A stretch of 53,792 nucleotides of DNA from a bacterium (GCA_030647265.1 JAUSJM010000013.1:1-53792); one strand, 5' to 3'. Shown: positions 96 through 53,792, numbered from the stretch's first letter. Notes: generated from the sequence alone by a model not told the origin. Program-made: numbers and translations.

Positions 96-486
96 GGATT
101 GCCTCCTTCAGTTGCAAAACTTTTTTTCCTACCGAGTCATCGTAAACCAAGTCGCTTATTTTAACTCTCATACCTCCTAAAAGGCCCGGGTTAACACTGT
201 TTTTGACCTTGGTAATGGAGAAGTGAATCTTCATCCCGGAAACCACTTTTTGTACCTGCTCTGCCGTTAAAGGCACAGCGCTTTCTATTTCCAAAGTTGT
301 TTTTGTCATCTCTCTTTTAACTCCTTTCCAATACTCAGTCAGAGCAGCGATAGCTTTTGGTAAGGGTAACTGTTTTAAAACACCTAAACATTTCCTCACC
401 TTTTCTTCCACCACCTCACCCTTGCCGTTAAAGCTCTCCGAAACAAGTTTCATTACTAAAAGTTTTATCTGTTTATCTTTTTTCAA
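88..486 (-). CDS. atpH: ATP synthase subunit delta (short form)
   Basis: SAVPLT...NPGLLGGMRVKISDLVYDDSV C-terminal delta motif; lies between atpF and atpA. Confidence 0.9.
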   Translation of the reverse strand: MKKDKQIKLLVMKLVSESFNGKGEVVEEKVRKCLGVLKQLPLPKAIAALTEYWKGVKREMTKTTLEIESAVPLTAEQVQKVVSGMKIHFSITKVKNSVNPGLLGGMRVKISDLVYDDSVGKKVLQLKEAIHE

Positions 487-977
487 GCCAGTCCTTCCAC
501 AGATCTTTGAATCATCTCTTTTTGGTCTTTCGTGGTAATAATCTTCCCTGTTACCTTCTGCAGACTTGCTGCTACCAAATCTGCCAGCTCTCCCCGGATT
601 TCCTGGTGCAACTTACCCCGTTCCTGCTCCATAGCATCCTTTGATTTCTCCATTAATTTTTTAATATCATGACCTGCTTTAAGGTGGGCTTCGGCCACAA
701 TCCTATCCGCAGTCTTAGCAGCCTCAGCTAAAATCTCCTCCGCCTCCCTGGAAGCCTTTTTTAACCTCTCTTCACGCTCCTTGGTAGTTTGCTCCAGCCT
801 CTTCTCAATCTCTTCGGCATTCCTTAAACTGTCAGCAATCCGCTGCTTTCTCTGATCCAGGGCCTTCAAAAGTGGTTTATAAAGAAACCTCTTTAAAATA
901 AAGAGCAGGATCAAAAAATTGACGACCTGCGCCATCAATAAAATTGGTTTAACACCAAAATTAGTTAAAATATCCAT
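483..977 (-). CDS. atpF: ATP synthase subunit b
   Basis: AQVVNFLILLFILKRFLYKPLL TM segment followed by coiled coil; start taken at MDILTNFG. Confidence 0.95.
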   Translation of the reverse strand: MDILTNFGVKPILLMAQVVNFLILLFILKRFLYKPLLKALDQRKQRIADSLRNAEEIEKRLEQTTKEREERLKKASREAEEILAEAAKTADRIVAEAHLKAGHDIKKLMEKSKDAMEQERGKLHQEIRGELADLVAASLQKVTGKIITTKDQKEMIQRSVEGLA

Positions 978-1283: not shown

Positions 1284-2015
1284 TTATTCTCCCTGTTTTT
1301 CCGATAAAAGCACCATAAAAGTCAGTGTCAGCATCATAAACACCGCTGCCTGCACAAAACCCACAATAATTTCCAAAAAATAAAAGGGGAGAGGAACAAC
1401 AAAAGCAAAGATCCCGGCAATTGTTGCCAACACAATCTCTCCTGCAAATATATTACCAAATAACCGGAAGGAAAGGGAGACTATCTTGGTAAATTCTCCC
1501 ACTAACTCTAAAAGTCCCACAAATAAAAAGATGGGGTTTAAATTAAACCACTTTTTAAAATAATCTAAAATGCCAAGATACCTTACAGCTAAAATATGGG
1601 TAGCAATAACAGAGATCAAAGCTAAGGCTAGGGTGGTATTAAGGTCAGCATTAATAGAGCGTAAAAGTGGCACAAAAACTTGCTTGCCTTTGTGAATCTC
1701 GTTGAAACCGATGGTACCAAACCCAGGTAAAAGCCCCAGCCAATTGGCAGTAATAATAAAAAGGAAAAAAGTCATGATCAGGGGGAAAAATACTTTAGCC
1801 TTGGAATGGGCTAAATCCTCAGTTAAGTCATAAACTGCTTCAATGGCAAATTCAAAAACGTTCTGTAAACCGGCCGGGACTACTTGAACACTGCGGGTAG
1901 CAAAAATTGCCACCGCGGAAAGTAAAATAGTTGTCACAAAGGTTACCAACATAGAGTTAGTAAGAGGGATTGGTCCTAAATGACCGATGGTTTCTGCAGC
2001 GAGTTGGATTTCCAC
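1284..2015 (-). CDS. atpB: ATP synthase subunit a
   Basis: NWLGLLPG, SLSFRLFGNIFAGE, VGFVQAAVF motifs; likely GTG start at 2015 (VEIQLAAET). The ORF-track extension to 2237 is antisense to a small gene. Confidence 0.95.
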   Translation of the reverse strand: MEIQLAAETIGHLGPIPLTNSMLVTFVTTILLSAVAIFATRSVQVVPAGLQNVFEFAIEAVYDLTEDLAHSKAKVFFPLIMTFFLFIITANWLGLLPGFGTIGFNEIHKGKQVFVPLLRSINADLNTTLALALISVIATHILAVRYLGILDYFKKWFNLNPIFLFVGLLELVGEFTKIVSLSFRLFGNIFAGEIVLATIAGIFAFVVPLPFYFLEIIVGFVQAAVFMMLTLTFMVLLSEKQGE

Positions 2016-5437: not shown

Positions 5438-6103
5438 TTACACCTCTTCATCAATAGATAGGGAATACAGGGTAGGATCTTCTATCTCTGTTTCTTCAAC
5501 AAAGGCTTGATAACTTAAATTAGGATTAGTCTTAGAAAAATAAGAGATAATTGTCTCAATATCACAAAATGGGTGTTGTTTACCAGAGATATAAGCTCTA
5601 TATGATGAATAGTAGTTATTTTCACCTTCCCACACTCCATGTGGGAATCTAAAACCCAAGGGATTCCTATGGATGTATTTAGAAAGCTGAAGGAGATATT
5701 CTTCATTTTCAATTAACCTGGCTTTAAATGGACCCTGAAAGAGAGAGCCAACACGTTCATATTTGGTGTTGAAGTACCTTGTATAGCTATCAGAAACTTT
5801 CCTCAAAAAAAGTGTCACGCCTCCGTCCTCAAGCTGTTGAATTAAGAGGTGAAAATGGTTTGGCATTAAACAAAAACAGTATATTCTTATCATCTCTTTT
5901 TGATCTTCTATCTTCTTCATCTTTATCACACCTCTTCTAAAATCTGAAAGTTTCATTGGGACTGGTTCTCTTCGGTAATAGTCCAAGGTTTCCAAAAAAC
6001 GCCAATAATCTCTCTTACCCATAAAAATTCCTCTCTTTTCCACACCTCTGTTGTAGATATGATAAAACTCACCAGAAACAAAAGGAGGATTTAACATACT
6101 CAT
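5438..6103 (-). mobile_element. REP-associated tyrosine transposase (RAYT; IS200/IS605 Y1 HUH family), copy 1
   Basis: YHIYNRG, CLMPNHFHLL (HUH), YFNTKYERVGSLFQGPFKA, YIHRNP, SSY; flanked by family A palindromes. Confidence 0.92.
5618..5654 (+). repeat. REP family A copy in frame inside RAYT1
   Basis: Exact duplicate of 5398-5434; encodes FRFPHGVWEGEN between the HRNP and YSSY motifs. Confidence 0.92.
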
Positions 6104-6110
6104 ATGATAT

Positions 6111-6152
6111 ATTTCACCTTCCCACACTTCAAGTGGGAACACGAAAATAATT
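6111..6152 (+). repeat. REP family A variant upstream of RAYT1
   Basis: ATTTCACCTTCCCACACTTCAAGTGGGAACACGAAAATAATT; the last 21 nt match murC 46631-46651 exactly. Confidence 0.85.
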
Positions 6153-6186
6153 TTAGGTTCTATTAAGGTTGGTATATAATCAGGAT

Positions 6187-7308
6187 ATGACTAGTGAAGA
6201 AAAATTTAATCTCATCACCAGAAACTTAGAGGAGGTTTTAACTCCGGAAGAGCTTAAGGCTTTAATTGAATCTGGAAAACCCTTAATCCACTATATAGGT
6301 TTCGAAATTTCCGGAAAAGTTCACTTAGGTCAAGGTATCGCTGTCATGCAAAAAGTCAAAGAGATCCACGAGTCCGGAGCAAAGACAATTATCTGGTTAG
6401 CAGATTGGCATGGGTGGATTAACAACAAACTTGATGGCACACTAGAGACCGCTCAAAAGATGGCCCGAGAATTTTTTTCTGAAGCCATGAAAGCTGCCTA
6501 TATCTGTGTTGGAGGAAATCCGGATGACTTAGTTTTTATGCAGGGAAGTGAGATTTATAGTGAGCACCCTGAATTTTGGGCCAAAACAATTAAAGTGGCA
6601 AAAGGCACAACAATTTCCCGAATGATGCGTTCCACAGATATTATGGGAAGAGTAGCTGGGGAATCCTCAAACACTGCCACACTTTTTTATCCTGCTATGC
6701 AGGCTGCAGATATTTTTCAACTAGGAGTCAATATCGCCCATGCAGGAACTGATCAAAGAAACGTTCATATCGTCGCCAGAGATGCAGCAAAGGACTTGGG
6801 ATTTGAAAAACCAATTGCCATTCACCATCACCTTATCATGGGTCTAAAACCCTTAGGAGAAAAGAACGACCAGAATTTTAATAAAAGCTTGTCTTATGAA
6901 GAGAAAGCTGATCTTATAACAGCTTTAAAGATGAGTAAATCCAAGCCCGATACAGCTCTTTTTATTACTGATTCTCCTGAAGAGATACAAAGAAAGGTTA
7001 ACAATGCATATTGCCCGGAGGGGGAAGTGGAATTTAATCCTATTTTAGATTGGACCAAATATTTAATCTTTTACAATCCCACCACTTTTACTGTTAAAAG
7101 AGATGAAAAGTGGGGAGGGGATCTAACATACACTTCTTATGAAGATCTGGAAAGGGATTATGCTGAGAAAAAACTCCACCCTCAGGATTTAAAAACTACT
7201 GTAGCTGAATGGTTAATAGAAAAGCTGGAACCAGCGAGGATTTACTTTGAAGATCCTCAAAGAAAAGCAGCTTTAGAGGAAATTGAAAGACTTACTGTAA
7301 AGAGTTAG
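6187..7308 (+). CDS. tyrS: Tyrosyl-tRNA synthetase, archaeal/eukaryotic type
   Basis: YIGFEISGKVHLGQ, YPAMQAAD, GTDQR, KMSKS, AYCP..EVEFNPI, LHPQDLK; no S4-like C-terminal domain. Confidence 0.93.
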   Translation: MTSEEKFNLITRNLEEVLTPEELKALIESGKPLIHYIGFEISGKVHLGQGIAVMQKVKEIHESGAKTIIWLADWHGWINNKLDGTLETAQKMAREFFSEAMKAAYICVGGNPDDLVFMQGSEIYSEHPEFWAKTIKVAKGTTISRMMRSTDIMGRVAGESSNTATLFYPAMQAADIFQLGVNIAHAGTDQRNVHIVARDAAKDLGFEKPIAIHHHLIMGLKPLGEKNDQNFNKSLSYEEKADLITALKMSKSKPDTALFITDSPEEIQRKVNNAYCPEGEVEFNPILDWTKYLIFYNPTTFTVKRDEKWGGDLTYTSYEDLERDYAEKKLHPQDLKTTVAEWLIEKLEPARIYFEDPQRKAALEEIERLTVKS

Positions 7309-22770: not shown

Positions 22771-23499
22771 TTGCAAATGAGGGTAGAACTGGAAGAGGAG
22801 CTCTTACCTAAACTTATAGGAAGGGTTTTTGTACCTAAAAATAGACAACCCCGGTATATCCCTAAAGGTATTGACGGGAAACGTCTTCCTAAATTAATGG
22901 TCTGTCCACAATACCAACTAATCGCTCGTTGTACTGATCTAACTTTAGGTAAACATGAATTATCTAGAGAACCCAATTATTGCGGATGGCAAGTCGAATA
23001 TTGGGAGCATCCAACTACAAGCAGAAGAGTAGCCATCTATAACCCCTGGCCAGCTTGTGGCATAATTTTGGTTAAGTTACGCTCTAGATTGGATACAATC
23101 ATTGAAAATAGCGAAGAGGATTTACCGCTAGTTCCTCAAGATGCCCTAAAAGTAGAGACGATACTGAGGAATCGACTCTTGTCCCAAAGAAAGAAAAACC
23201 AGCTAATTGACGATATCCCCAAAAGTGCCTACTACTTGCAAGAGGGCCTTTTTACTCGTTGGGTTTTATCGTACCTTGCTAACATAGATTGTGGCTCAAG
23301 ATCAATAATTCTTAGATTAGAACAACTTACAGCTAAAGATATTATTGATTTTGCCAGAATTAATTTAAGAGATTTAGAAGAGATTACAGGTAAAGACTTT
23401 GTTCTCGATAGTGAGTTCACTGCTGAAGGTTGTCCTCTTGCCCCTATTTACCACAGAATAGCTGAACCACCCCAAATTCCATCTTCTCTTAATTTGTAA
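22771..23499 (+). CDS. Hypothetical protein
   Basis: 242-aa ORF with several Cys/Trp; no recognisable family; start may be the second Met. Confidence 0.6.
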   Translation: MQMRVELEEELLPKLIGRVFVPKNRQPRYIPKGIDGKRLPKLMVCPQYQLIARCTDLTLGKHELSREPNYCGWQVEYWEHPTTSRRVAIYNPWPACGIILVKLRSRLDTIIENSEEDLPLVPQDALKVETILRNRLLSQRKKNQLIDDIPKSAYYLQEGLFTRWVLSYLANIDCGSRSIILRLEQLTAKDIIDFARINLRDLEEITGKDFVLDSEFTAEGCPLAPIYHRIAEPPQIPSSLNL

Positions 23500-23584: not shown

Positions 23585-24262
23585 GTGCCTACAAGAAGTA
23601 TTATCTTTGCCCAGAATCAGGTTTACCATATCTTCAATAGGGGTGTTGCTCATCTGCCAATCTTCTATTCAATTAATAACTACTCTAGATTTTTAGACAC
23701 TCTGAACTATTACCGTTTTACAAATACACCTACAAGTTTTTCCCAGTTTATGAAATCACCACTAGATTCAAGACGGCAAATTACAGATAACCTCCAGAAA
23801 GAGAATGATCTTTTGGTAGAAATATTGGCCTTCTGTTTAATGCCTAACCATTTTCACCTTTTATTAAAGCAAATCTCAGAAAAGGGAATCATTAATTTTA
23901 TGGGAAATGTCCAAAATAGTTATGTTAAATATTTAAACATCAAAGAGGGTAGGATAGGGCCTTTATTCCAATCAGCTTTTAAAGGTAAAAGAATAGAAAC
24001 AGATGAGCAACTTCTTCATGTTTCCAGATATATTCATCTAAATCCTTCCACAAGTTATTTAGTAGAACAGGAAAAATTCGCTGAATATCCCTGGTCCTCA
24101 TTACCAATTTACATATCTAACTCATCCACATATAACACTTTTGTTAACCCAAGGCTAATTTTAGAGTTCTTCAAGAGTGGAGAAAAATATAGAGAATTTC
24201 TCGACGACCAAGCTGGATATCAACAGGAATTAGCAAATATTAAACACCTAACTATGGAATAG
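23585..24262 (+). mobile_element. RAYT-like tyrosine transposase, copy 2
   Basis: YHIFNRG, CLMPNHFHLL, GPLFQSAFK, YIHLNP, YPWSS; palindromes on both sides. Confidence 0.92.
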
Positions 24263-32489: not shown

Positions 32490-33172
32490 CTGGACCCCCT
32501 GACTTTCACGGTAGTAGCAAACGGTACCCCTCCCGATTCCACCTGGGACTCATAGGTTCCTCCCGCCCTCTTGCCTTCAGAGGCTTGGAAGGTAACAGTC
32601 ACCAAATCCCCATAACCTGCCTGGTAATCCCAGTCAAACACTGGAGTAATATTGTCCTCCCGTGACAGAGAAACTCCTCCTGTTGAACTTAGATCCGAGA
32701 GGTAGTTTTTACCTGACGGTTGGGGAGCAGAGGAGACACAAAGGTTACCAAAGACACTGGTGATATTTTGGGCATCTTCTAAAGAGAAAGTGTCGGAAGC
32801 GATGTAGCCGTTTGAACCTGGGGTGGCATTATAAAATCTGAATCTGGTATAGCCGTTTCCCGTAATTTGGGCACTGGGTGTACCCACCAAAGCGTTTTGC
32901 CCGAAGATAACCAGGGTGTCGTAATCATTGGGAGCGGTTGTATTATGGTCGGTGCAAACTACTTTTTCTGCCTGGCGGATCTCCGAACTTAATTTTTCCA
33001 AAATCACCTGCCCGTTTTGTTTTACCTGGTTGATAACTTTAACCTTACTTTGGCCCCGCAGTGACTGAGTCAGAACATCTGTAGTAATGAGTCCCAGTAT
33101 CACTACTACAACCGTGACTATCATTACCTCAATTAAAGTAAAACCTTCAAACTGGCAAAGCTTTTTTTTCAT
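32486..33172 (-). CDS. Minor pilin (PilW/GspJ-like)
   Basis: GFTLIEVMIV; LSSEIRQA motif. Confidence 0.82.
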   Translation of the reverse strand: MKKKLCQFEGFTLIEVMIVTVVVVILGLITTDVLTQSLRGQSKVKVINQVKQNGQVILEKLSSEIRQAEKVVCTDHNTTAPNDYDTLVIFGQNALVGTPSAQITGNGYTRFRFYNATPGSNGYIASDTFSLEDAQNITSVFGNLCVSSAPQPSGKNYLSDLSSTGGVSLSREDNITPVFDWDYQAGYGDLVTVTFQASEGKRAGGTYESQVESGGVPFATTVKVRGSR

Positions 33173-33177
33173 CTTCT

Positions 33178-33690
33178 TTAGCGGGGCGTAATAATTGTCT
33201 GTAAGTTCGACTCATGGCTCCCCGAGCTGTCGGTCCATTTTACCTTGACGGTCACCTGTTTTTGCAGTGCAAAGCTTGTTGCATCATCCCAAAACATGAT
33301 CTGCCTGGATAAGCCGTCGCCTAAATCTACATCTGATGAGGCCACCGGGACCTGGGAAAGAGAAAGGCTGCCCACCCCTAAAGTAAAATAAGACGAATCT
33401 GTACTAGCTGAGATTTGAACACTCCACAAATCTGAAAATTTGGCCACCGAAGTACTGCCAAAATTGGCTGTCACCGCTACATCCCGGTCCCGGATTCCCC
33501 GGATTTTATCTATTGCCTCCTGGGCATACTTAGTGGCCTGGGATTGTTTTTGGGCAAATTGGGAATTTTTTAGCCCGGTGAGAATGGTGATAATGAGAGC
33601 CGTGATAACTAAGGCTGCGACCACCAAGGCCACTAAAACTTCGATTAAACTTTGTCCCGATTCCCGATCTTTAGTGTCTTTAGATATCAT
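33178..33690 (-). CDS. Minor pilin (PilV/GspI-like)
   Basis: SGQSLIEVLVA; ATKYAQEAIDKIR; KQVTVKVKW. Confidence 0.82.
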   Translation of the reverse strand: MISKDTKDRESGQSLIEVLVALVVAALVITALIITILTGLKNSQFAQKQSQATKYAQEAIDKIRGIRDRDVAVTANFGSTSVAKFSDLWSVQISASTDSSYFTLGVGSLSLSQVPVASSDVDLGDGLSRQIMFWDDATSFALQKQVTVKVKWTDSSGSHESNLQTIITPR

Positions 33691-33692
33691 CT

Positions 33693-34337
33693 TTAGTTGG
33701 TGTAAATTGCTCCTCCTTTTTCAATAGTCACCTCCCGGGTTTGGGCGGGATCTCCATCAAGCTGCAAGGTAATGACCATCCTGTTTTGAGGCTGAAAAGC
33801 AGGACAGCCGGAATTAGTGCTGTCAAACTGAAAAGTTACCAAGTTAGTGATCGTACCAAAGAACACCTCAGCTCCGAAATTAGTCAGGTCTATTCCGTGG
33901 CAAGCACTAACCTCAATGCCGGTATGAGCAGGAGGAGACGTTTTATTTTTAATACTCACCCCTGTAGGCAGATTATAGGTAGTGGGAGTGGGGGTTGTGC
34001 CATCAGAGCATTTAGGACCGATCTGGTAAGATTTAACTGAGGATGAAGGAGTATCGTAGATAAAACTTAGGTACCAAGAGGAAGCAGAGATCCCGTCAGA
34101 GCATTTAGTACTGGATGAGGCGTTATTTTGAGCTGCGCGGAGGGATGACTGCAGCTGCTCCATTCCGTCCTGTAAAGATCCGTAAGTTGCATATTTGGTC
34201 AATTGGGGTAAAACTAAAGTCACCAGTCCTGCCATAATAGCTACTGCTACCAAAAGTTCCATAAGGGTGAAACCCTTACAAGATCTTTTGCGAAGCAAAA
34301 GTAGACTTATAAGGGTGAAACCGTTTACCTTGGGCAT
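33693..34337 (-). CDS. Pilin (FimT/GspH-like) with duplicated GFTL leader
   Basis: MPKVNGFTLISLLLLRKRSCKGFTLMELLVA; LQSSLRAAQNNA; C-terminal IEKGGAI. Confidence 0.85.
   Translation of the reverse strand: MPKVNGFTLISLLLLRKRSCKGFTLMELLVAVAIMAGLVTLVLPQLTKYATYGSLQDGMEQLQSSLRAAQNNASSSTKCSDGISASSWYLSFIYDTPSSSVKSYQIGPKCSDGTTPTPTTYNLPTGVSIKNKTSPPAHTGIEVSACHGIDLTNFGAEVFFGTITNLVTFQFDSTNSGCPAFQPQNRMVITLQLDGDPAQTREVTIEKGGAIYTN
34261..34322 (-). repeat. 48-bp hairpin insertion with a 14-bp direct repeat in a prepilin leader
   Basis: ATAAGGGTGAAACC at 34261 and 34309 flank the CTTTTGC-GAA-GCAAAAG hairpin (34285-34301). Confidence 0.88.
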
Positions 34338-34372
34338 ACTTTAACCGTACCAGCTTTTAGGTTAACTTTCAA

Positions 34373-34924
34373 TCAGGGAGGAGAAAGACCAATCTTACAG
34401 GTTGTAGAATTACAAGTTTGAGGGGAACCACAAGCAGAGGGAACCTCATAAGTGCCAGTACCTTCCTGCCAGGCACATAAGGCATAACTTACACACTCCC
34501 CATAGGCTTCACAGGGAGCGGGAGAGACCGGTAAAGCTAGGTAGACATATCCCTGTCCAGTGCTGGGATCTTTCGGCACCTGATCTAAATAGGTTTTACC
34601 ATTACTACCATCTGCTTTTTTACAGGGAGATCCAGAGCTGTCTGGAGAACAGAGAGGGGAACCGGGAGCAGGAAAGGCAGTAGAAGCAGGGTAATAATGC
34701 CAATCGTGACGGTACAGCTCTAAGGCCTTGGAGATTGAACCCAAATCCAGAAGTCTTCTCTTGTCATGGTTATTTTTTAAGGTTGAAGAAAAAACAGAAG
34801 CTCCGATAGCTACAAGAAGCGTCAGTATGGCTACTGTTACTAGCAGCTCAATGAGAGTGAATCCCTTCTTGGCCCTACTGTTCAAGCCACGTCGAGAACA
34901 TCTTACTATTTGTCTTCTCATCAT
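34373..34924 (-). CDS. GspG/PilA-like pilin
   Basis: KGFTLIELLV; DKRRLLDL..ISKALELY..YYP; VPKDP; YALCA. Confidence 0.88.
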   Translation of the reverse strand: MMRRQIVRCSRRGLNSRAKKGFTLIELLVTVAILTLLVAIGASVFSSTLKNNHDKRRLLDLGSISKALELYRHDWHYYPASTAFPAPGSPLCSPDSSGSPCKKADGSNGKTYLDQVPKDPSTGQGYVYLALPVSPAPCEAYGECVSYALCAWQEGTGTYEVPSACGSPQTCNSTTCKIGLSPP

Positions 34925-35484
34925 GGAGATATGACCTCATACCCATCAACGGTAGGGTCATAAGTATTAGGGCAAGCAGTATCTTGCTTATCCGAAGTTT
35001 TCTCCATCTTGGCATAAAGACAATAAATTACACACTTTGTGGTAGCTGAAGTGTTATCACACTCAGTTTGAGGACTGAGACTGGCATAAGGGTGATATAG
35101 AAAGGGAGTAGTAGCAGTGAGATCTACTGGCAGTTTACTAGAATAATTTTTAGTAGGATTAGGGCTGCTACAAGGATTAATATTGGGATTGCCGGTACAG
35201 TTAGTCAAGGAAGATCCAAAGGTTAAGGGGTTAGGCGCTGGGGCCAGGGCAGGGAAAAACCCCTGGTCGGAGTAATACTGCTGCAGCAGGCTCTGGATAA
35301 CCCCTAAATCCGACCTTCTTTTATCATCTCTAGCTCCTTTCTGAAAGCTGGAAAAAGTGCTGATGGAGATGATTATCAGGATAGCCATAATGGTAATAAC
35401 TACCAGCAGTTCAATAAGAGTAAACCCGCTCAAATTTGTTCTTAAATTTGTTCGGGTAAAGCCTTTATCCTTCATGACTTTCAT
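34921..35484 (-). CDS. GspG/PilA-like pilin with duplicated GFT leader
   Basis: KGFTRTNLRTNLSGFTLIELLV; ARDDKRRSDL; YCLYAKME. Confidence 0.88.
   Translation of the reverse strand: MKVMKDKGFTRTNLRTNLSGFTLIELLVVITIMAILIIISISTFSSFQKGARDDKRRSDLGVIQSLLQQYYSDQGFFPALAPAPNPLTFGSSLTNCTGNPNINPCSSPNPTKNYSSKLPVDLTATTPFLYHPYASLSPQTECDNTSATTKCVIYCLYAKMEKTSDKQDTACPNTYDPTVDGYEVISP
35420..35463 (-). repeat. 36-bp hairpin insertion duplicating GFT in a prepilin leader
   Basis: GTAAACCC (35420) and GTAAAGCC (35456) are 36 nt apart and enclose the CCCG..CAAATTT / AAATTTG..CGGG stem. Confidence 0.8.
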
Positions 35485-36014
35485 CTTTCTAGACTAGATA
35501 AACAAAAAGGGGGTGATTCTTGATCCAAAGCAGCACAAAGCGTCCAGGATTTAACATTTACCGGAGTGGTATTGCCTAAATCCCCTGTGCTACTGATAGC
35601 AGAGCTAACTTTATCATAATGAGATCCTCCACAGTTAAGATCGGTAGGACAACCTCCGCTTGGCCAGAGGTTAGTAGCAGCAGTGCAATCAGTAGGCACA
35701 CTAATAGGAACGGCAGTACTGGTGCTGATACAATAATTTCTGGTCCCGGAAGGATCGTTAGGAATGACACCACCGTTACTGGGAAAATCGGTAGCAGCGG
35801 TAGCGATTGTATACCTGTAAACCCGGTTGGTAAAATCCTTGGAAGATTCAATAGAATCGGTAATAGATTTAATTTCTGCTTTCCTCCTACCGTCATTAGC
35901 CTTACCCCTTGCCACTCCATAAGCTGTTAAACCAATAACCGACAAAATAGAAATTATACCAATCACCACCATCAGCTCAACCAAAGTAAAACCTTTAGAA
36001 GAATTATTTTTCAT
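35481..36014 (-). CDS. GspG/PilA-like pilin
   Basis: KGFTLVELMVV; ANDGRRKAEI; Cys-rich C-terminus. Confidence 0.88.
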   Translation of the reverse strand: MKNNSSKGFTLVELMVVIGIISILSVIGLTAYGVARGKANDGRRKAEIKSITDSIESSKDFTNRVYRYTIATAATDFPSNGGVIPNDPSGTRNYCISTSTAVPISVPTDCTAATNLWPSGGCPTDLNCGGSHYDKVSSAISSTGDLGNTTPVNVKSWTLCAALDQESPPFCLSSLER

Positions 36015-36105
36015 AAGGGCAGCTTATTTTAGTATCATCTCTTTAGGGTACCATGTCAATGTCTTAAAAATGAAAGATAAGGGGAGGAGAATTTATTAAC
36101 CAGAT

Positions 36106-36624
36106 CTACTGAACGTTTGTTCTACAGAATAGTTCACCAGTACCACGTTTCTCCAACCTTGTACATAGCCTCCATGAAACTGTGGTATTCAAAGGATTCG
36201 AACCATTTATCAAATTATATGTTGTTCCTGTAGCGGGGCAGGCAGGAACAGTAGTAAAACCATAGCTAGGTCCTGCATCTGTTGCCTGACTTGGAATAGT
36301 CGAGGTAGTACTAGCAGCAATACAATAAGGATAAGTAGAGGGATCTAAGGCAGTAGAACCTCCACCAGGGAACGCTCCACCTCCAAACATTGTTGCTGCT
36401 ACTAAAGGCACATACTTACCTGTAGCTGTATCTTTGTTAACCTCCAAAGCATTGGCAATGGCTTCCATCTCAGCTTTTCTTTTACCATCCCTGGCATCTG
36501 CTTGAACATTGGAATAAAGAGTAATAGCAATGACTGAGATAATGGCAATGATGGCAATCACTACCAGCATTTCAATGAGGGTAAAACCAGAAGTCTTCTT
36601 AAGGTTGGGCAGGTGGATATTCAT
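36106..36624 (-). CDS. GspG/PilA-like pilin
   Basis: SGFTLIEMLVVIAII; ARDGKRKAEM; WRLCTRLE. Confidence 0.88.
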   Translation of the reverse strand: MNIHLPNLKKTSGFTLIEMLVVIAIIAIISVIAITLYSNVQADARDGKRKAEMEAIANALEVNKDTATGKYVPLVAATMFGGGAFPGGGSTALDPSTYPYCIAASTTSTIPSQATDAGPSYGFTTVPACPATGTTYNLINGSNPLNTTVSWRLCTRLEKRGTGELFCRTNVQ

Positions 36625-36669
36625 AAATTTATCTTACTATAACTAGAATTACATAATTAAAAAACCCTG

Positions 36670-37596
36670 TCAATACCCCAGTTTGAAGCTGGAAAAATAC
36701 AAATTTAAAATTTGTGGGGCCCAAAGAAAGGCTAAGACAGCCCCCAAACTGAGGAATGGTCCAAAGGGAATAGTTTGCCCAAAACTTTTCCTTCCCAGAG
36801 CAATCAGTCCCAGGGAAAATACAGCCCCTAAGAGGAAGGCCAGGAGAAGGGCTACCATAATTTGAGGAAACCCTAAAGCCAGACCTAAAAAGAGAACAAA
36901 CTTCACATCCCCCCAACCCATGCCTCTTCCTTTGGTGACAACTATTAACAGTACAAAGAGCAGGGCCATCCCTAAGGCCCAACTGATATCCCAAACCTTG
37001 TTTAAAACTAACCTTTGAACAACATCAGAAAAGTAGTGGGAACGGGGAGGTAAAAGATAACTGCCAAAAGGCGAGGAGAGGATACTTTGATAAAAAGTCC
37101 AAATCTTTAACCCTAAAGAAACTAAGATATAAGCAGCGCTTATCAACACAGCAGGATATGTAATACGATCCGGAATTAACCCTGTCTTTAAATCCGTCAA
37201 AAAAACAACGGCTAAAACAACCACTGTAAATATTTTAAACAGCAGGTCTAAAAGCAGGGAAACGTTGTCCCAGGTAAAATTCATCGGAAAGACCAGGGCA
37301 GAAGGAGTACTGGCAAAGATAAAAGCTACCGTTACTCCTAAAACTATCTCTACTCCTAAATTTAAGGAAGGAATTTTCTTATGGCAGTAACGGCACCTGC
37401 CTTTTAATAAGAGATATGATAAAACAGGAAAAAGGTCGTACCAGGCAAGCTTTCTCTTGCAACTTAAACAGTACGACCTTCCCCAAAAAGATACCTTTTT
37501 TGTACTTCGGTCTGCCAAAGCTTTTGCTAAACTTCCTAATATTGTCCCAAGTACAAAACCAAAAACAATTAATCCTAAGCTATTGTTCATACCCAA
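36670..37596 (-). CDS. pilD: Prepilin peptidase
   Basis: RSYCLSC...DLFPVLSYLLLKGRCRYC, TDLKTGLIPD, GMGWGDVK, IPFGPFL. Confidence 0.95.
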   Translation of the reverse strand: MGMNNSLGLIVFGFVLGTILGSLAKALADRSTKKVSFWGRSYCLSCKRKLAWYDLFPVLSYLLLKGRCRYCHKKIPSLNLGVEIVLGVTVAFIFASTPSALVFPMNFTWDNVSLLLDLLFKIFTVVVLAVVFLTDLKTGLIPDRITYPAVLISAAYILVSLGLKIWTFYQSILSSPFGSYLLPPRSHYFSDVVQRLVLNKVWDISWALGMALLFVLLIVVTKGRGMGWGDVKFVLFLGLALGFPQIMVALLLAFLLGAVFSLGLIALGRKSFGQTIPFGPFLSLGAVLAFLWAPQILNLYFSSFKLGY

Positions 37597-53254: not shown

Positions 53255-53792
53255 TTATTCCTCCTCAAGCAGTAGATGTTTCATAATCTCTAGCTCCTTA
53301 GCATAATCTCCATGCCCTCCAACAAAATCCTTATAATCGTTACTATTTTTAAAGTTGTTTAGAACAGAATCCGCTACACATAACTGATCATGATCAACAT
53401 CTATAAAGTGCTGGTAAGATGAGTAAGGATAAAGCTTCAATTCTTGAACCAACTCACTCACATAAGGATTAAGGTGAATATAACGAGAAACATGAAGCAG
53501 TTGGATCTCATCTTCTATTAAAACTGTTTTAAATACTCCCTGGAATAGTGGTCCCACTCTTGTATGCTTAGTGTTGAAATATTTAGTATAGCTGTTCAGT
53601 ACTTTTCCTATGAATTCCGAAATACCGTTATCTTGCAGCTGCCTAACTAGGAGATGAAAGTGATTAGGCATGAGGCAGTAACAGATAACCTCTACAACTT
53701 TAGGATTATGGCTAAAATCATTAATTTTAAAGCGGTTACGATCTGAAAAAGGGGGCTTAGGTCCAGTAAACTGATAATAATAAAGCGTCTTT
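53255..53792 (-). mobile_element. RAYT-like tyrosine transposase, copy 3 (5' end outside the window)
   Basis: Frame is open to the window edge (KTLYYYQFTGPKPPFS...YCLMPNHFHLL); GPLFQGVFK, YIHLNP, YPYSSY. Confidence 0.9.

Follow-up and report, generated by a model that had tools for sequence, protein, structure and literature searches.

In the leader of gene B, a type IV pilin-like gene of a CPR-type genome, the 36 additional bases represent a single copy of a small palindromic repeat, which we term B-type, and not a local duplication. Probably, a mobile B-type palindrome integrated at the pilin TTTA, its leader insert is removed by the peptidase and the mature pilin is unchanged. The element would integrate at the TTTA of the Phe-Thr codons in the pilin Gly-Phe-Thr cleavage motif and come to lie between 4-nt direct repeats. 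The CC at its start would complete the upstream codons as GGC-TTT-A/CC (slashes mark element junctions), and the GGG at its end would recreate GGG-TTT-ACT (G↓FT, the arrow marking cleavage) directly downstream. The 12 added residues would leave with the leader through the prepilin peptidase, with no change to the mature pilin, and a site at which inserts are erased from the protein could tolerate and accumulate such elements. We infer both that B-type elements are mobile as such and that the insert is neutral. If so, selfish DNA can live costlessly inside an essential-type coding motif, since it lands in the part that is cut away and its ends restore the cleavage site.

Host pilin gene and the inserted hairpin

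The window, meaning the whole stretch of 53,792 nt that was analysed, is contig 1 of a 784,921-base genome (G000; 35 contigs, 92% complete). Its source is an ultrasmall CPR-type bacterium, since Candidatus Daviesbacteria assemblies make up most of the named matches to a repeat of this locus. A type IV pilus cluster occupies the minus strand at ~30.5-42.3 kb and contains several pilin-like genes with the N-terminal methylation motif, as well as a prepilin peptidase gene located four genes upstream of the insert-bearing gene B (Table 1). Gene B starts with ATG AAA GTC ATG AAG GAT AAA GGC TTT ACC CGA ACA AAT TTA AGA ACA AAT TTG AGC GGG TTT ACT CTT ATT GAA, and its translated N-terminus reads MKVMKDK-GFT-RTNLRTNLS-GFTLIELL. 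It has the hallmarks of a type IV pilin (class III signal peptide), namely the motif G↓F(T/S)L(I/V)E followed by a hydrophobic helix, with peptidase A24 encoded in the same locus. At the junction with the preceding pilin gene, the ATG shares bases with the TGA stop of that gene (ATGA), which makes use of the upstream start, and with it translation of the insert, likely. Following the placement of prepilin cleavage sites in established pilin biology, cleavage is predicted at the second Gly, as this residue precedes the hydrophobic helix and Glu+5, while the first precedes RTNLRTNLS. The prepilin peptidase is expected to ignore the first Gly-Phe-Thr.

The sequence-only reading had described two GFT sets 36 nt apart around an imperfect stem, with an internal 12-nt repeat, and its coordinates and structure were confirmed. 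On the minus strand, GGCTTTAC is located at 35463-35456 and GGGTTTAC at 35427-35420, with a spacing of 36 nt. The stem consists of CCCG (35456-35453), AA, CAAATTT (35450-35444), the loop AAGAAC (35443-35438), AAATTTG (35437-35431), AG and CGGG (35428-35425), while AAATTTGTTC occurs twice on the plus strand (35432-35441 and 35444-35453; spacing 12 nt). Folding of the 34-mer gave -11.1 kcal/mol as RNA (z -7.0) and -8.3 kcal/mol as DNA (z -7.3), and none of 200 shuffles was as good in either case. When translated, the insert amounts to 12 added leader residues (FTRTNLRTNLSG).

Before insertion, the host sequence is reconstructed as GGC TTT ACT, and after it as GGC-TTTA/CCCG...CGGG/TTTA-CT. The first CC of the element completes ACC (Thr) and its last GGG is the Gly codon of the functional G↓FT, so that the "GFT duplication" is largely a by-product: the duplicated part is confined to the 4 nt TTTA, and the remaining letters that make the repeat look 8 nt long are imitated by the ends of the element. 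Two GFT sets are indeed present, but the claim that the insertion had duplicated GFT holds for TTTA alone. An earlier reading of the junctions, with a 2-nt duplication and ends ACC../..GGT, was replaced by the 4-nt repeat and the ends CCCG../..CGGG after all copies had been tabulated; a tRNA-Gln fragment of the same genome, carrying a hairpin bounded exactly by CCCG..CGGG, supported this choice.

The assembly comprises 35 contigs, and the Logan contigs of run X1, its probable source, break at the neighbouring A-type hairpin, as an artefact at a repeated motif in a metagenome-assembled genome might lead one to expect. A contig of the same run, which may be the source run, nevertheless covers 34265-37000 with 0 differences, and genomes and metagenomes of independent origin show the same structure, leaving such an artefact a negligible probability. 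Among the contigs (not reads) of runs X1-X3, of which X2 and X3 hold small shares, none joins across the insert, an outcome that is neutral with respect to excision.

Table 1. Positions of the features discussed, in window coordinates unless a locus is named, and hairpin types at pilin GFT codons.
Feature	Position	Strand	Basis or remarks
Type IV pilin-like gene B, 187 aa, insert in leader	34921..35484	-	ORF; Pfam N_methyl at residues 19-40, E 4.2e-7
First (orphan) GFT, GGC TTT ACC	35455..35463	-	GGC + TTTA from host, final CC from element
Left copy of 4-nt direct repeat TTTA	35457..35460	-	Phe codon and first Thr-codon base of orphan GFT
B-type palindromic element core, 32 nt, CCCG AA CAAATTT (AAGAAC) AAATTTG AG CGGG	35425..35456	-	Sequence, fold, shared arms
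Right copy of 4-nt direct repeat TTTA	35421..35424	-	Within functional GFT
Functional GGG TTT ACT, G↓FT cleavage motif	35419..35427	-	GGG is the last three bases of the element; N_methyl match begins here; then LIELLVVITIMAIL
Prepilin peptidase gene, enzyme expected to cut off the enlarged leader	36670..37596	-	Pfam A24_N_bact E 1.9e-21, Peptidase_A24 E 8.1e-12
A-type hairpin insert in pilin gene 33693..34337(-)	34257..34322	-	Other repeat family, AAGTCTAC..GATCTTGT
RAYT-like Y1 (HUH) transposase gene, candidate enzyme only	5438..6142	-	PF01797; flanking hairpins differ in sequence from B-type
tRNA-Val/GIY-YIG layout	L141 (G073:C41) 1474-1970		
tRNA-Val/GIY-YIG layout	L292 (G057:C2) 244-695		
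tRNA-Val/GIY-YIG layout	L291 (G084:C24)	reverse	
A-type hairpin at pilin GFT codons			AAGTCTAC..GATCTTGT
C-type hairpin at pilin GFT codons			ACGTTC..GAACGT
S-type hairpin at pilin GFT codons			GCGAAGCGCGAAGC
D-type hairpin at pilin GFT codons			CAGCACCAC..GTGGTGCTG
Further forms at pilin GFT codons			GFTL(I/M)-x-GFTL

The dispersed B-type family and its flanks

The view that the GFT region holds an insertion is borne out by its membership in a repeat family. B-type cores have the form CCCG-NN-CAAATTT-loop-AAATTTG-NN-CGGG and measure 30-52 nt. The two NN pairs were never complementary in the copies inspected, and the hairpin therefore has a conserved 2x2 internal loop. A pattern search with the exact arms (CGAACAAATTT .. 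AAAYTTG) gave 13 places in 8 of 96 same-family genomes, relaxed arms gave 23 unique copies in these genomes, and at least 121 stretches of metagenome contigs match the exact pattern. From the latter, 80 loci were fetched and 76 unique copies with enough flank were analysed: pilin leaders account for 7, tRNA D-loops for 12, 16S V1 helices for 2 and other settings, including 23S rRNA helices and promoter-like TTGA[element]TTGACA sites, for 55. Tandem copies occur at G084:C5 and L247. Within the source genome itself, the search for other copies of the insert that the sequence-only reading had proposed came out negative: blastn-short with the 48-mer and the 30-mer core found no second B-type copy in the 92% complete assembly (best 13 nt exact or 17 nt with 1 mismatch, E >= 0.35). 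A search of 33000-37000 against Rfam (E <= 1) returned just a chance PVX_3 match elsewhere. When metagenome contigs were searched with protein B, 68 pattern stretches and 0 confirmed relatives were obtained. One contig of run X2 matches 35424-35460 with 2 extra letters and has unrelated flanks.

These copies bear directly on purely local slippage, by which a tandem duplication of the leader and GFT would have made the second GFT and the 12-nt repeat with no foreign element. The doubled AAATTTGTTC at 12-nt spacing and the RTNL-RTNL tandem peptide repeat do look like its product. However, the arms CCCGAACAAATTT / AAATTTG..CGGG recur with unrelated loops at dozens of non-pilin loci, and dropping one 12-nt unit would ruin a hairpin common to all relatives. 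Moreover, the closest relatives, L219 and L248, have the same right arm GAGCGGG and the same total length of 54, but where the window has AAGAAC their loops read TATTAA and TACTAA. Substitutions in the loop of a hairpin that was already there thus account for the 12-nt repeat. Being self-complementary, AAATTT is present in both arms regardless. Slippage, which had been suggested as a possible contributor, is not needed, and as a full explanation it is very improbable.

Concerning the flanks, an exact 4-nt direct repeat of the form TNNA borders 10 of the 23 same-family copies, 6 of which are non-pilin (TCAA, TTGA, TTTA); these are 6 of 18 non-pilin family copies, against an expectation of 1 in 256 per copy. 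Among the metagenome copies, 10 of 76 have a 4-nt direct repeat and 50 of 76 have no direct repeat, the flanks being usually inverted (TTTA..TAAA, TTCA..TGAA), which lengthens the stem; TTNA stands directly 5' of the element in 44 of 76. As most B-type copies are without a direct repeat, target duplication by staggered cutting does not appear to be a general property of the family. The 12 pilin copies (one each in G000 and G100, three in G084 and seven at metagenome loci) have the repeat (TTTA or TTCA) exact in 11 cases and at 3 of 4 positions in one. Their left and right Phe codons are TTT/TTT in 9, TTC/TTC in 2 and TTC/TTT in 1, and since the codons vary together on both sides, the repeat appears to be target-derived in pilin copies. 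It may also partly reflect selection for outcomes that rebuild GFT.

Beyond the pilin genes, B-type hairpins form or extend variable rRNA helix tips in metagenome contigs and two family genomes (L246 and L210 in the 16S V1 helix; L189, L188, L157 and L168 in 23S rRNA). At L148, L156, L204, L142 and L145, several copies are established at TTGA/../TTGACA, where they duplicate the start of a -35-like hexamer with a -10-like hexamer at suitable distance. The pilin TTTAC(C/T) is similar to the -35-like TTGAC motif at such sites.

The Gly-Phe-Thr codons as a recurrent insertion site

Comparison of pilin-homologue leaders, which had been put forward as a check, placed B-type elements at the same codons in all 12 pilin genes that carry them and showed other inserts to be common in pilin leaders. 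The pattern GGNTTYWSN occurs 12-60 nt upstream of 45 of 666 pilin GFTL(I/V)E motifs in 96 genomes, and the composition-matched control TTNGGYWSN upstream of 6 of the same 666. A reversed-pattern control (0 matches) was unfair, as it reverses the pilin motif too, and the composition-matched one was used instead. By our reading of the list, ~37 of the 45 upstream repeats fall in recognisable hairpin types and ~8 are chance-like. At least five unrelated hairpin types are found at pilin GFT codons, in 24 of 96 related genomes, and the site is therefore a hotspot. Hence the preference for this site, rather than chance, that had been proposed from two neighbouring inserts is upheld; the B-type insert is not a pure tandem duplication and similar inserts do occur in other pilin leaders. 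Among the 19 best-hit relatives of gene B in other genera (L002-L020), 4 have an insert of another type and 15 have none.

The ortholog of gene B in G084 (48% identity) belongs to a syntenic cluster and has the same insert; as G084 represents another genus, the insertion is old. No insert-free allele of the gene-B lineage was found, the G084 ortholog, L219 and L248 all carrying the insert. The last pilin-like gene of G084 (L167 position 6448) also bears a B-type element, whereas its counterpart in the window (MKQEQGTTLIE) does not, a difference that requires two distinct events at the least.

All 12 pilin copies are in frame and stop-free, with lengths of 54, 57 or 63, as compared to an in-frame length in 41 of 86 non-pilin copies. 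This open frame weighs against programmed translational bypassing. In phage T4 gene 60 and the mitochondrial byp elements, matched take-off and landing codons stand around a hairpin, and the GGC/GGG-TTT codons around the B-type hairpin look like that arrangement. A bypass would not need the frame to stay open in 12 of 12 copies, and no stop codon follows the first site. Additionally, a D-type relative in G107 has an upstream remnant that is out of frame (reading VGLP), although its frame is kept from ATG through the insert to GFT. Bypassing is thus highly improbable, even more so than slippage. The G107 remnant also indicates that the first "GFT" is not needed as peptide.

The same open frame could speak for a hairpin kept for its function, as a fold of the mRNA, 27-60 nt inside the coding sequence, that modulates the translation or stability of this pilin, as a longer basic leader that alters processing, or through 4-nt repeats that allow reversible precise excision (phase variation). 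Its fold is strong, and orthologs from two genera, as well as two close metagenomic relatives, have kept the insert with arms invariant and loops free. The arms CCCGNNCAAATTT / AAATTTGNNCGGG are terminal inverted repeats that do not vary among the 12 pilin copies; as they show no covariation, an alignment fold is equally compatible with DNA-level and RNA-level constraint. However, the same element resides in tRNA D-loops, rRNA helices and promoter-like sites, and arm conservation is therefore a property of the family and not specific to pilins. The diversity of unrelated hairpins at the same codons and the 15 insert-free relatives of gene B mentioned above also argue against a retained function, and the hairpin would lie past the usual footprint of an initiating ribosome. 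Altogether we regard a retained function as rather unlikely, and favour a mobile palindrome whose product is cut away with the leader.

The neighbouring pilin gene bears an A-type insert at its GFT codons. It had been noted that this insert (given as 34261-34322) is unrelated in sequence to that of gene B, and the two do belong to separate repeat families. Their supposedly matching architecture is superficial: both place a hairpin at GFT codons, but the A-type insert includes a copy of 14 nt of the target as well as an arm that complements the target, and the likeness does not extend to mechanism. Members of the A-type family have a longer upstream target copy (diverged in several cases) and conserved ends with a covarying stem. 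Their junctions have AT/NGAAC in common, and the post-hairpin arm complements the sequence of the target and changes with it. Further copies in the source genome are at ~23125-23160 and 23363-23398 of contig 30, downstream of tRNA-Lys and tRNA-Glu, where an orphan duplicate of the respective tRNA 3' end comes next, and at 3737-3766 of contig 31, with a diverged copy of the 5' end of a GTPase gene on one side and the intact 5' end on the other (MNSIRNVAIIAHVDHGKT). Pilin leaders of G012, G067 and G084 hold further A-type copies, as do Daviesbacteria assemblies. Run X1 shows a summed contig depth of 118 at 34206-34339, against ~10 on either side, and one of its contigs (1,262 nt) has a pair of A-type-like copies at a distance of 504 nt, so that other organisms of the sample must hold the A-type repeat in abundance. 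The G084 ortholog of this neighbouring gene (L167 3267-3899) has, instead of the A-type insert, a leader with the tandem peptide repeat NFSLRSKNKQSL x2, another kind of leader expansion.

Relation to known elements and candidate enzymes

Rickettsia palindromic elements (RPEs) are ~100-150 nt long and are kept in the mature protein. B-type elements measure 30-52 nt, occupy in pilins one exact codon position of one protein class, within a segment expected to be cleaved off, and have ends that rebuild the motif; size and host set the two apart, and what they have in common is behaviour. A common trait of B-type elements, RPEs and ORF-internal REPs is that of short palindromic repeats in frame in still-functional protein genes, often N-terminal (passages of PMC3733652). 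Palindromic repeats inside ORFs are thus already known, as REPs and as RPEs of Rickettsia (passages of PMC3733652), and what is new here is an intragenic palindromic repeat (RPE/REP/MITE-like) in a pilin leader that is predicted to be cleaved off. A limited literature search found no paper describing hairpin repeats in CPR pilin leaders. REP/REPIN elements are, like B-type, imperfect palindromes of 20-40 nt with a conserved internal mismatch (in B-type a 32-nt core with 4+7 bp and a 2x2 internal loop), and RAYT-like genes are multi-copy in these genomes. REPs are defined by a conserved GTAG or CGTC tag at one end (PMC3733652), and neither tag is found at either end of the B-type consensus. Unlike REP/REPIN, which number tens to hundreds per genome, B-type has 1 copy in the source genome; it does not flank RAYT genes, and many of its copies are inside protein, tRNA and rRNA genes.

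MITEs (e.g., in-frame Correia or ERIC) resemble B-type in their terminal inverted repeats, direct repeats at some copies, tandem reinsertions and lack of coding capacity. B-type is, however, far smaller, most of its copies have no direct repeat, no partner IS sharing its ends was found, and the copy-richest genomes lack DDE_Tnp_1. Ends-only derivatives of IS200/IS605 (PATEs) are likewise hairpin-based, prefer a short 5' sequence and use single-strand-like targets in tRNA and rRNA loops; B-type differs in having one hairpin and not two distinct ends, direct repeats in a subset of copies and no adjacent Y1 transposase with these ends. GIY-YIG homing cassettes (phage T4 Seg type) offer a further parallel: the GIY-YIG cassettes next to B-type hairpins are found between a tRNA fragment and an intact tRNA copy, and SegB acts in a tRNA gene cluster (PMC2330249). 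The pilin copies differ from these cassettes: they have no ORF, the hairpin was not seen with a nuclease gene inside, and the GIY-YIG association was seen only in tRNA contexts.

A broader reading, which we offer tentatively and as less likely than not to hold in full, is that the A-, B-, C- and D-type pilin hairpins are miniature forms or end-structures of one undescribed class of CPR mobile elements, driven by GIY-YIG or RAYT-like enzymes. Such elements would home to tRNA D- and T-loops, rRNA helix tips, -35-like TTKAC and GGN-TTY-ACN, their termini would have evolved to rebuild codons ("self-healing"), and the cleaved class III signal peptide would be a safe haven for selfish DNA. Independently of that reading, one small hairpin connects pilin leaders, tRNA D-loops, rRNA variable helices and GIY-YIG cassettes, and it may give access to a system of mobile elements in genomes that are regarded as nearly transposon-free. 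It would also account for the "double GFT" and the over-long pilin leaders of CPR bacteria, which could otherwise be mis-annotated as wrong starts, fused genes or regulatory leaders.

Candidates for the mobilising enzyme are the small GIY-YIG nucleases adjoining B-type tRNA hairpins or the multi-copy RAYT-like Y1 transposases. Regarding the former, a small GIY-YIG ORF starts within 120 nt of the B-type hairpin in 8 of 12 tRNA D-loop contexts. Specifically, three genera present a tRNA-Val 5' fragment with a B-type hairpin in the D-loop, followed by a GIY-YIG ORF whose stop overlaps the 5' end of an intact tRNA-Val (Table 1). One of these loci (L291) is more complex: it also harbors two B hairpins in degenerate form, another tRNA-like copy that contains a B hairpin, and an A-type hairpin accompanied by an orphan tRNA 3' end. 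Three small GIY-YIG ORFs of the source genome are each established inside a duplication of the target (contig 13, 24900-25310; contig 33, 17100-17800; contig 10, 7150-7500). The one on contig 13 follows a tRNA-Gln 5' fragment with the CCCG..CGGG hairpin in its D-arm and precedes an intact tRNA-Gln. Both short ORF-less insertions and GIY-YIG ORFs have been reported in CPR rRNA genes (passages of PMC11270868).

Searches for other partners were negative within their scope: DDE_Tnp_1 (PF01609) had no match in the copy-rich genomes G000, G084, G057 and G012, and no far-apart pairs of the same ends, as expected of an autonomous partner, were found on one contig in 96 genomes. In G084, with ~8 B-type hairpins, none of the 12 Y1 genes has one within 1 kb (by coordinates). 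RAYT-like genes (PF01797) are present in 83 of 96 family genomes, whether B-type copies are present or not, so that this search does not discriminate. The source genome has six RAYT-like Y1 genes, three of them in the window, with PF01797 at C1:5663-5914, 23774-24037 and 53474-53701. The first of these genes has, within window positions 5438-6190 (minus strand), a hairpin of its own, TTCCCAC..GTGGGAAGGTGAAA, both upstream and downstream, and a third copy lies in frame within its own ORF (..FPHGVWEGEN..).
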